This document shows, in pieces, positions 1 to 3,000 of a stretch of DNA of 64,000 nucleotides (positions are counted from its first letter, which is position 1; each line of letters starts with the position of its first letter). This stretch comes from Escherichia coli O157:H7. Its GTDB lineage: Bacteria; Pseudomonadota; Gammaproteobacteria; Enterobacterales; Enterobacteriaceae. The stretch lies in NCBI RefSeq assembly GCF_013167455.1, contig NZ_CP038328.1; one strand, written 5' to 3'. The position numbers are program-made.

Positions 1-3000
1 CAGGTTTCTACCCAGGTTTCCAGTTCCGGGATCGAGATCAGCGGCAGCAGTGCCACGTTCGGGCTACGACCCTGAATGGAGTCCAGCAGCGTCTGATATT
101 TCAGGTTGCTGATAAAGATGTGTTTTTCGTGTTCAGGCAGCGCCTGGTAATCGATACGGTCACGAGAAACGTCAACTTCTTCCGGACGCCAGAAGAAAGA
201 GAGCTGCTTTTCGATCAGCTTTTCGAAGATGTCATATTTTTGCTGATCGTAACGGGCCACGTTGACCGGCTGACCAAAGAACATCGGTTCTTTGAGCTGA
301 TCATTTTTCGTCTGTGAAAAGGTGGTATATGCCATGAGTGTGTCCTGTTGGGAGTTTAATGCCGGATAAGGCATTTTACGCCGCATCCTGTGCCTGATGC
401 GACGCTGGCGCGTCTTATCAGGCCTACAAATCCGAGCCGTAGGCCGGATTAGGCGTTCACGCCGCATCCTGTGCCTGATGCGACGCTGGCGCGTCTTATC
501 AGGCCTACAAACCGAGCCGTAGGCCGGATAAGGCGTTTACGCCGCATCCGGCATCTCAATATCAGATCTTACATGCGCCGCTTTCGCAGCCATCGTCCTG
601 GATTGACGGCACCAGATCGTCCTGCGCGTCTTCAGCGCCGTCACGGGTGTTCTGATAATACAGCGTTTTGACCCCGAATTTGTAGGCGGTGAGCAGGTCT
701 TTCAGCAACTGCTGCATCGGCACTTTTCCTGACGGGAAGCGTGACGGATCGTAGTTGGTGTTAGCAGAGATCGACTGATCGATAAATTTCTGCATGATAC
801 CCACCAGTTGCAGGTAGCCATCGTTACCCGGCATTTCCCACAGCAGCTCATAGGCGTCGTGCAGATGCTCGTAGTCCGGCACCACCTGGCGCAGAATACC
901 GTCTTTCGACGCTTTGATGCTGACGTAACCGCGCGGCGGTTCAATACCGTTAGTAGCGTTAGAGATCTGCGAAGAAGTCTCGGACGGCATCAGAGCAGAA
1001 AGCGTGGAGTTACGCAGGCCGTGTGTTTTGATTGACTCACGCAGAGCTTCCCAGTCGTAATGCAGCGGTTCATTAGCGATGGCATCCAGATCTTTCTTAT
1101 AGGTATCGATCGGCAGGATCCCTTTCGCGTAAGTGGTTTCGTTAAACCACGGGCACGCGCCTTGCTCTTTCGCCAGCTCATTAGACGCTTTCAGCAGGTA
1201 ATACTGAATCGCTTCGAAGGTTTTATGCGTCAGGTTGTTGGCGCTGCCGTCGGAGTAGCGTTTACCATGCTTCGCCAGGTAGTAAGCGAAGTTGATCACA
1301 CCAATACCCAGCGTACGACGACCCATCGCTCCACGTTTGGCGGCCGGGATCGGGTAATCCTGATAATCCAGCAGCGCGTCAAGTGCACGAACCGCCAGAA
1401 TTGCCAGCTCTTCCAGTTCATCCAGGCTATTAATTGCGCCCAGGTTGAAAGCAGACAGCGTACACAGCGCGATTTCACCGTTCTCGTCGTTGACGTCGTT
1501 CAGCGGTTTGGTCGGCAGGGCTATCTCCAGGCACAGGTTAGACTGACGCACTGGCGCGATGGCCGGATCAAACGGGCTATGGGTATTGCAGTGGTCAACG
1601 TTCTGAATATAGATACGACCGGTAGACGCACGTTCCTGCATCATCAGCGAGAACAGCTCAACGGCTTTCACACGCTGCTTGCGGATGCTGTCGTCTTTCT
1701 CATATTTGGTATACAGGCGTTCAAACTCTTCCTGATCGGCGAAGAATGCGTCGTACAGCCCCGGTACGTCGGACGGGCTGAACAGGGTGATATCTTCACC
1801 TTTCAGCAGGCGGGTATACATCAGTTTGTTGATTTGTACCCCGTAGTCCATATGACGCACGCGGTTGCCTTCCACACCACGGTTGTTTTTCAACACCAGC
1901 AGGCTTTCCACTTCCAGATGCCACATCGGGTAGAACAGCGTTGCCGCACCGCCGCGCACGCCGCCCTGAGAGCAGGATTTCACCGCAGTCTGGAAATGTT
2001 TGTAGAACGGAATGCAGCCGGTATGGAACGCTTCGCCACCGCGAATCGGGCTACCCAGCGCACGAATACGCCCGGCGTTGATGCCGATCCCGGCACGCTG
2101 GGAAACATATTTCACAATCGCGCTGGAGGTGGCGTTGATGGAATCCAGGCTGTCGCCGCACTCGATCAGTACGCAGGAGCTGAACTGACGAGTCGGGGTA
2201 CGCACGCCGGACATGATTGGCGTCGGCAGCGAAATTTTAAATGTGGAAACCGCGTCGTAAAAACGCTTCACATATTGCAGGCGCGTTTCACGCGGGTAGT
2301 TCGAGAACAGGCACGCAGCAACCAGAATATAAAGGAACTGGGCGCTTTCGTAGATTTCGCCGGTCACACGGTTCTGTACCAGATATTTGCCTTCCAGTTG
2401 CTTAACGGCAGCATAAGAGAAGGTCATATCACGGTCGTGATCGATAAACGTGTCCATCTGCTTGAACTCTTCTTCCGTGTAGTCTTCCAGCAGATGATTA
2501 TCGTATTTGCCCATCTCGACCATTTTCACCACGTGGTCGTACAGCGCAGGCGGCTCAAACTGGCCGTAGGCTTTTTTACGCAGGTGGAAGATCGCCAGGC
2601 GCGCGGCGAGATACTGATAATCCGGCGCATCACGGGAGATCAGGTCTGCGGCAGCCTTGATAATGGTTTCGTGGATGTCAGAGGTCTTGATACCGTCATA
2701 AAACTGAATGTGGGAGCGCAGCTCGACCTGGGAAATCGAAACGTTATGCAGTCCTTCTGCCGCCCAATCCAGAACGCGATGGATTTTGTCGAGATTGATG
2801 CGCTCTGTGCTACCGTCGCGCTTTGTCACCAGCAGATTCTGATTCATGTATGTCGTACCTGTTTTTGGAATTCTTTCCGCAATAGTTTCGTGCAGACTAC
2901 CTGTAGTACGGGAAGCTGCTTAGAACACTATATATAGGGGGTATGTTTGGGATTCACTGCAAGATAGTGTGAAAATGGCCCTCTTGCAAGTGCATAACTT

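Follow-up and report, generated by a model that had tools for sequence, protein, structure and literature searches.

Identification of REP clusters in the window

Four spacers in a 64 kb segment of the Escherichia coli O157:H7 chromosome (hereafter the window, meaning the whole stretch that was analysed) are rich in palindromes, and they raise the questions of whether these are true repetitive extragenic palindromes (REPs), how they are arranged, and whether their number changes from strain to strain. An earlier note had placed clusters of REPs or bacterial interspersed mosaic elements (BIMEs) at the four sites, all after gene ends, with two of them built from tandem units of about 100 bp and with copy number expected to vary. 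Positions 200-760 of the window are 100% identical to O157:H7 records. The gene order, following the annotation of O157:H7 strain PV15-279, is nrdB, nrdA, ypaB, yfaL, ubiG, gyrA, yfaA-yfaP, rcsC, rcsB, rcsD, ompC, apbE, ada, alkB, yojI, mqo, eco, nap, ccm, narP and yejO.

The whole window was scanned with blastn-short, using Y, Z1 and Z2 consensus sequences, and with a structure-aware Rfam search (E ≤ 0.5). The Y and Z2 sequences used agree with the consensus printed by Rfam for naRNA4 (RF02564), a model composed of a Y hairpin, a linker and a Z2 hairpin and having a gathering score of 59.5 bits. Matches by blastn-short with E < 0.01 were confined to positions 391-553, 7321-7400, 23478-23674 and 35443-35519 (best E 1e-16), and the rest of the 64 kb yielded just 8-13 nt noise; naRNA4-like matches were restricted to the same four clusters. 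The list of four is confirmed as complete for the window, with REPs in each of these spacers and none outside them.

In total, 13 REP units per 64 kb were identified, 11 of them with E < 0.001 and two Z2 units matching at 37/37 positions (blastn-short). The naRNA4 gathering score is exceeded by three Y+Z2 pairs, two in the rcsC/rcsB cluster (Table 1) and one at 442-505 (63.4 bits); the remaining pairs fall below it, at 53.7, 52.3 and 43.7 bits. Palindromes of the form GCCGGATG.../...CTTATCAGGCCTAC are legible in all four regions, and the characteristic GTAGG/CCTAC feet are found at positions 423, 439, 504, 519, 7347, 7363, 23556, 23592, 23670 and 35522, with GTAGGA at 23478. The GTAG foot is missing from the degenerate units at 361-388 and 35443-35473. 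A strict 37-nt IUPAC pattern for REPs, expected zero times in shuffled sequence, caught one unit only, the loop lengths differing. The four regions are predicted to fold far more stably than dinucleotide shuffles, with z-scores of -7.3, -5.5, -7.0 and -3.9. REP-bearing queries match many sites in each E. coli genome, with a median of at least 32 places for the nrdA/nrdB sequence, which gave at least 40 matching pieces in 3,535 records, and 19 for that of rcsC/rcsB.

The two independent scans thus bear out both the four sites and their REP-type identity, the latter through matches to the Y/Z2 consensus and to the naRNA4 model. The limits first proposed for the clusters hold broadly, save that the rcsC cluster starts at 23478 and not at 23486. 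All four clusters follow gene ends and lie between annotated genes, with a 3-nt exception, the rcsC stop codon TAG (23479-23481), which is part of the GTAG of the first Y REP in that cluster.

Orientation alternates within every cluster, and head-to-head linkers measure from 3 to about 21 nt. The units are exclusively of the Y and Z2 types, as the Z1 matches merely overlap the ends of Z2 units, and the core WATCAANNNNTTR of the integration host factor (IHF) site was searched for in all four spacers and not found. Because only Y and Z2 units are present, the linkers are short and the IHF core is absent, the four clusters are very probably ordinary members of the E. coli REP family arranged as BIME-2.

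Organization of the four clusters

Table 1. Positions of REP units and tandem arrays in the window. A unit is on the + strand when TGCC...CCTAC is read on that strand.
Spacer	Feature	Positions	Strand	Description
nrdA/nrdB	Tandem array	361-556		unit 1 361-442 (82 bp), unit 2 443-522 (80 bp), partial unit 3 523-556
nrdA/nrdB	Degenerate Y REP nearest the nrdB start	361-388	-	Y positions 5-31, 89% identity, E=0.078
nrdA/nrdB	Z2 REP, perfect	391-427	+	37/37, E=1e-16
nrdA/nrdB	Y REP, head truncated by 3-nt junction TGT	439-469	-	Y positions 5-35, 97% identity
nrdA/nrdB	Second Z2 REP, perfect	472-508	+	37/37
nrdA/nrdB	Full Y REP	519-553	-	35 nt, 97% identity
yfaL/ubiG	Y REP, slightly degenerate	7317-7351	+	Y positions 5-35, 90% identity, E=5e-6
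yfaL/ubiG	Z2 REP	7363-7400	-	0 mismatches to strict pattern; 95% identity, E=4e-10; inverted repeats
yfaL/ubiG	Orphan Y-head fragment TGCCGGATGAATCC	7411-7424	+	Y positions 1-9
rcsC/rcsB	Duplication	23463-23674		copies 23463-23560 and 23577-23674, 114-bp spacing
rcsC/rcsB	Y REP	23478-23512	-	35 nt, 91% identity; naRNA4 match 23481-23557, 73.8 bits
rcsC/rcsB	Z2 REP	23524-23560	+	37 nt, 92% identity, E=1.5e-9
rcsC/rcsB	Second Y REP	23592-23626	-	94% identity; naRNA4 match 23595-23671, 73.7 bits
rcsC/rcsB	Second Z2-like REP	23638-23674	+	Z2 positions 19-37, 95% identity; inverted repeat 12/12
mqo/eco	14-bp hairpin of two Y-type REP heads	35407-35437		inverted repeat, 100% complementary; Y heads 35411-35419 and 35425-35439
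mqo/eco	Z2 REP, degenerate foot	35443-35473	-	Z2 positions 1-31, 100% identity, E=4e-13
mqo/eco	Degenerate Y REP	35495-35529	+	Y positions 4-28, 92% identity

The first cluster lies inside the nrdAB operon, which is read on the - strand, and is flanked by the nrdB start (335) on one side and by the nrdA stop codon (562-564) on the other. Its five units, in the order Y'(degenerate)-Z2-Y-Z2-Y, span 361-553, and the full Y REP starts 8 nt past the nrdA stop codon in the nrdAB mRNA. The degenerate Y unit at the nrdB end belongs to the naRNA4 match at 360-424 (53.7 bits, below the gathering score). The match at 442-505 is made without the 13-nt linker of the model; the head-to-head junction between Y and Z2 is just 3 nt here and the tip of the Y stem has been removed. 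The array amounts to 2.4 copies at 94% identity, and units 1 and 2 are identical at 77 of the 82 aligned columns, with a global alignment score of 135 against a shuffle mean of -53.

An open reading frame (ORF) of 12 codons at 334-369 (+), antisense to the nrdB start, encodes a product identical to the annotated K-12 small protein YoaM (b4779), and its last three codons together with the stop (GCC GGA TAA) come from the degenerate Y REP.

The rcsC/rcsB cluster, with unit order Y-Z2-Y-Z2, occupies 23478-23674 between the two convergent genes. It is made of two copies, 90% identical over 98 nt, separated by a 16-nt spacer (23561-23576) that matches the rcsB end at about 9 of 16 positions, which is not significant. 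Each copy opens with the last 19 nt of rcsC or a diverged duplicate of them, and the duplication is therefore not confined to REP sequence. The second Z2-like REP, in which the 5' arm has become self-complementary (GCCAGATAAGAC/GTCTTATCTGGC), stops 6 nt short of the rcsB stop codon (23681-23683, - strand). Both this cluster and that of nrdA/nrdB are tandem, as had been proposed, with periods of 114 bp and 80-82 bp, respectively, in place of the suggested unit of about 100 bp. Tandem Repeats Finder (score 30, applied to sub-regions too) reported neither array; this was treated as a miss by the tool, as pairwise alignment and repeat search show both arrays clearly.

Between the convergent yfaL and ubiG genes, the second cluster (7317-7424) consists of a Y/Z2 pair and an orphan Y head. 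The Y REP begins 21 nt past the yfaL stop codon (7293-7295) and is faced tail-to-tail by the Z2 REP over an 11-nt linker, GGAGAGCATTT. The orphan head is part of a 13-nt surplus in this spacer, which measures 140 bp in the window versus 127 bp in K-12.

The fourth cluster (35407-35529), in the convergent mqo/eco spacer, comprises a perfect 14-bp hairpin followed by a Z2 and then a degenerate Y unit. The hairpin lies 6 nt past the mqo stop codon (35398-35400), and at the other end 20 nt separate the degenerate Y from the stop codon of eco (35550-35552, - strand). The naRNA4 match in this spacer (35441-35523, 52.3 bits) remains below the gathering score.

Copy number across E. coli genomes

The strain comparison covered 5,426 complete E. 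coli genomes. At nrdA/nrdB the shortest spacer, of 88 bp, has no REP and is found in single copy in 1,684 of these (31%), for example in strain T16R (137-224 of the locus). Three units are present in the 146-bp spacer of O121:H19 strain 16-9255, and five in the 226-bp spacer of the window (O157), the 233-bp spacer of K-12 and the 241-bp spacer of strain HCM-26C-1; a 189-bp spacer with four units of another subtype, also in tandem, occurs in strain GABEEC10. The middle Y/Z2 junction of the five-unit alleles reads CCTGTGCC in O157 versus CCGGCACCCGGAGCC in K-12, a difference that suggests conversion or separate duplication events.

The REP-less 88-bp spacer, which occurs once per genome at megablast sensitivity, holds a CCCTCTCCC...GGGAGAGGG palindrome and may resemble box C or other GC-rich intergenic repeats of E. 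coli. In the GABEEC10 spacer (137-325 of the locus) a different REP subtype, TGCCGGATGCGCTTCGCTTATCCGGCCTAC, alternates with Y units, and the whole is itself duplicated in tandem (about 81 bp).

In about 87% of genomes the yfaL/ubiG spacer is 127-140 bp long and carries a Y/Z2 pair; the remainder (about 13%) have a 60-bp spacer with one divergent palindrome.

At rcsC/rcsB, an evenly spaced sample of the ranking gave two units in 48 of 59 rows and one unit in 10, which suggests that about 80% of genomes have two units. The junction between units was detected in at least 2,701 genomes, a lower bound because the 53-nt megablast query misses diverged junctions, and with up to three junctions per genome the range extends from one to at least three units. 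Spacer lengths are 85 and 199 bp. The single unit of O157:H7 strain PV15-279 combines the unit-1 REPs of the window with the right flank of unit 2, and that of Nissle 1917 is of the unit-2 type. These one-unit alleles are different, independent and of equal length, the outcome expected from exchange between direct repeats.

The mqo/eco spacer has one unit in the window and three in strain ET915; in K-12 it is 714 bp long, with 5.9 copies of a 113-bp unit. Its inter-unit junction was found in 2,008 of the 5,426 genomes (37%), at 1-11 places each (median 5), and these places adjoin the mqo match of the same record in the two records checked; part of the spread may reflect assembly collapse of repeats. 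The expectation of the earlier note that copy number would differ between strains is borne out by these spacer comparisons. Its count of two duplicated clusters among the four describes the present strain well; across E. coli, the mqo/eco cluster, single here, is the most expandable.

The ecotin gene is annotated at 510 nt in K-12 (362-871 of the extracted locus) versus 489 nt in the window (35550-36038), and K-12-type genomes give no alignment beyond the mqo/eco spacer at megablast sensitivity. Comparison of these sequences suggests that a divergent eco allele adjoins the long BIME array in K-12-type genomes.

Comparison with known REP systems

By the published definition, BIME-2 elements are built of Y and Z2 units with short linkers and no IHF site, and are found in tandem, in numbers that differ from one strain to another (Ton-Hoang et al. 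2012, PMC3333891). The clusters of the window share with BIME-2, in the Gilson/Bachellier nomenclature (PMC3333891), the alternating Y and Z2 units, the short head-to-head linkers, the variable tandem units, the lack of an IHF site and the extragenic position. Nothing essential differs; the local quirks are the 3-nt nrdA/nrdB junction, the rcsC stop codon in a REP foot and the 19-nt rcsC duplication. The family has long been known and its polymorphism is documented, so that there is nothing new in the elements themselves.

The Y+Z2 module is also that of REP325/naRNA4 (RF02564), a 12-unit Y/Z2 array between yjdM and yjdN in K-12, and the nrdA/nrdB cluster is operon-internal, as is REP325. The arrays of the window are shorter, with 1 to 2.4 modules compared with 6 in REP325, and the condensing role of naRNA4 is itself disputed. 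BIME-1/RIP elements (Y plus Z1, with a long linker carrying an IHF site) share a Y-type unit and the extragenic position, but membership in this class was rejected, as the four spacers contain no Z1 unit, long L linker or IHF core. Pseudomonas REPIN/RAYT systems (PMC3116915) likewise consist of inverted REP pairs whose mobilisation is attributed to a RAYT gene in single copy; they differ in REP sequence family and RAYT clade, and tandem amplification of the pairs is a feature of E. coli BIME-2.

Origin and possible local roles

According to the literature, REP units would be seeded and diversified by RayT, a Y1 transposase acting on single-stranded DNA. RayT binds REPs through GTAG and a stem mismatch and cuts at CT dinucleotides, both within inverted REPs and within linkers and at times distant from where it is bound; its in vitro products resemble tandem BIME amplification (PMC3333891). 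Arrays may change in length by RayT strand transfer, or by unequal recombination or slippage between direct repeats, as has also been proposed; each one-unit rcsC/rcsB allele consists of the outer flanks and one REP pair, as exchange between copies would leave. The rayT gene (encoding TnpA-REP) is located outside the window and is present in single copy in 3,574 of the 5,426 genomes, O157:H7 included (92.8% identity). Espeli and Boccard reportedly observed in 1997 that DNA gyrase binds and cleaves BIME-2 elements.

Once transcribed, the GC-rich hairpins are proposed in the literature to have local effects, exerted where the messages of the neighbouring genes end. They may block 3'-to-5' exonucleases and so stabilise the upstream message, they may bring about partial Rho-dependent termination, and a first hairpin within 15 nt of the stop codon would stall the terminating ribosome and lower the output of the upstream gene. 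A preprint from the Xiao and Adhya laboratories (bioRxiv 10.64898/2026.03.23.713779) describes REP325 as attenuating transcription in a partly Rho-dependent manner while stabilising the upstream message, and reports genome-wide REP trends at tandem and convergent gene pairs. A further article (PMC12306157, citing Liang, Rudd and Deutscher 2015) states that REPs within 15 nt of a stop codon stall ribosomes, and names the nrdAB transcript as a reported case. In the window, the distance from stop codon to hairpin is 8 nt for nrdA, 0 for rcsC, 6 for rcsB and 6 for mqo, and 20-21 nt for eco and yfaL. Judged by these reports, the hairpins at the 3' ends of the RNAs are likely to serve as message stabilisers, partial terminators and dampers of translation.

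Several points weigh against this account of origin and function. No REP at all is present between nrdA and nrdB in 31% of genomes, and about 13% are without the yfaL/ubiG pair, so that whatever the elements do at these two loci is dispensable. The preprint cited above finds large variance from locus to locus and no uniform effect on mRNA half-life. The rayT gene is missing from a third of genomes, and present-day changes in copy number need therefore not involve RayT. The 19 nt of coding sequence included in the rcsC/rcsB duplication are accounted for by a generic duplication no less well than by an amplification specific to REPs. Every functional step, moreover, is inferred from the literature.

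Some of the same observations would fit functionally neutral DNA, selfish or relic, whose copy-number differences reflect drift without phenotype. Alleles with no REP or a single unit are common in healthy lineages (the 31% and about 13% just mentioned), one-unit rcsC/rcsB alleles occur even within O157:H7, and several units are degenerate. Against neutrality stand published experiments in which REPs locally affected message stability, termination and translation, at nrdAB among other loci, and the placement of hairpins 0-8 nt from four stop codons, which matches the window of distances reported to be active. We regard neutrality as a minority possibility that deserves some weight.

It is improbable that the Y+Z2 pairs encode nucleoid-associated RNAs of the naRNA4 kind, which would bind HU, bridge REP DNA and condense the chromosome. 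Three pairs do exceed the Rfam RF02564 threshold, and a 2015 mBio paper has the REP325-derived naRNA4 acting with HU (PMC4550694). The Rfam model is, however, close to a profile of any Y+Z2 pair, so that a match indicates REP identity and not that function, and two of the matches also score 52.5 bits on the opposite strand, as expected of palindromes and not of oriented genes. Deletion or over-expression of REP325, furthermore, leaves nucleoid volume unchanged, and no REP-REP contacts were seen (bioRxiv 10.64898/2026.03.23.713779).

That the hairpins are intrinsic, Rho-independent terminators that merely look like REPs is very hard to credit and was rejected: although they are GC-rich, directly follow stop codons and occupy three convergent spacers without another terminator, a scan for a hairpin followed by a T-run was empty in all four spacers, full termination at the cluster internal to the nrdAB operon would leave nrdB silent, the sequences fit the dispersed REP consensus and not locus-specific stems, and most REPs have no U-tract (bioRxiv 10.64898/2026.03.23.713779). 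The single match of the terminator scan at the nrdA/nrdB region falls inside nrdB, on the non-coding strand, and a scan of the nrdA/nrdB spacer for promoter-like sites found none.

The REPs in the nrdA/nrdB spacer, by their presence and number, might set the NrdA:NrdB ratio of ribonucleotide reductase, an essential enzyme, in a heritable way, and REP number might do likewise for RcsC/RcsB (from 1 to at least 3 units) and for Mqo/Eco (from 1 to 12). The nrdA/nrdB alleles behind this idea are those with no REP (31%), with three units, and with five units of two independently derived kinds. The proposal is speculative and we consider it unlikely; if true, E. coli lineages would differ in the subunit stoichiometry of ribonucleotide reductase with coding sequence and promoter unchanged. 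Swaps of the nrdA/nrdB alleles would offer a clean natural test of the local regulatory roles proposed for REPs, and the nrdAB REP is already a published example of translational damping. Otherwise, REPs and BIMEs having been described since the 1980s, the present elements are of little consequence beyond correct annotation, and their length-polymorphic spacers lend themselves to typing and pose a risk to short-read assembly.

Other features of the window

An integrative element of 9,574 bp is located at 52269-61874, bounded by imperfect 32-nt direct repeats, of which the right one is the 3' end of tRNA-Pro(GGG) (61852-61928, -). Its cargo includes an integrase-sized ORF (60392-61651, -), a C4 antisense RNA (58621-58708, -) and isrK (58730-58806, -). 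In O157:H7 strain PV15-279, which is without the element, yejO and tRNA-Pro are 100 bp apart.

The yfaS/yfaQ region (about 13300-20360) is annotated in a near-identical O157:H7 record as a frameshifted alpha-2-macroglobulin gene and a yfaQ with an internal stop, and the list of ORFs in the window is fragmented likewise across it. An Rfam match to the Rev24 antisense RNA inside rcsC (21435-21889, -) falls short of the gathering score, with 117.7 bits versus 246, and most probably stems from the conserved coding sequence of rcsC and not from an RNA gene. The small RNA MicF was recognised by Rfam at 27332-27425 (-; 116.8 bits), upstream of ompC and divergent from it, as expected.

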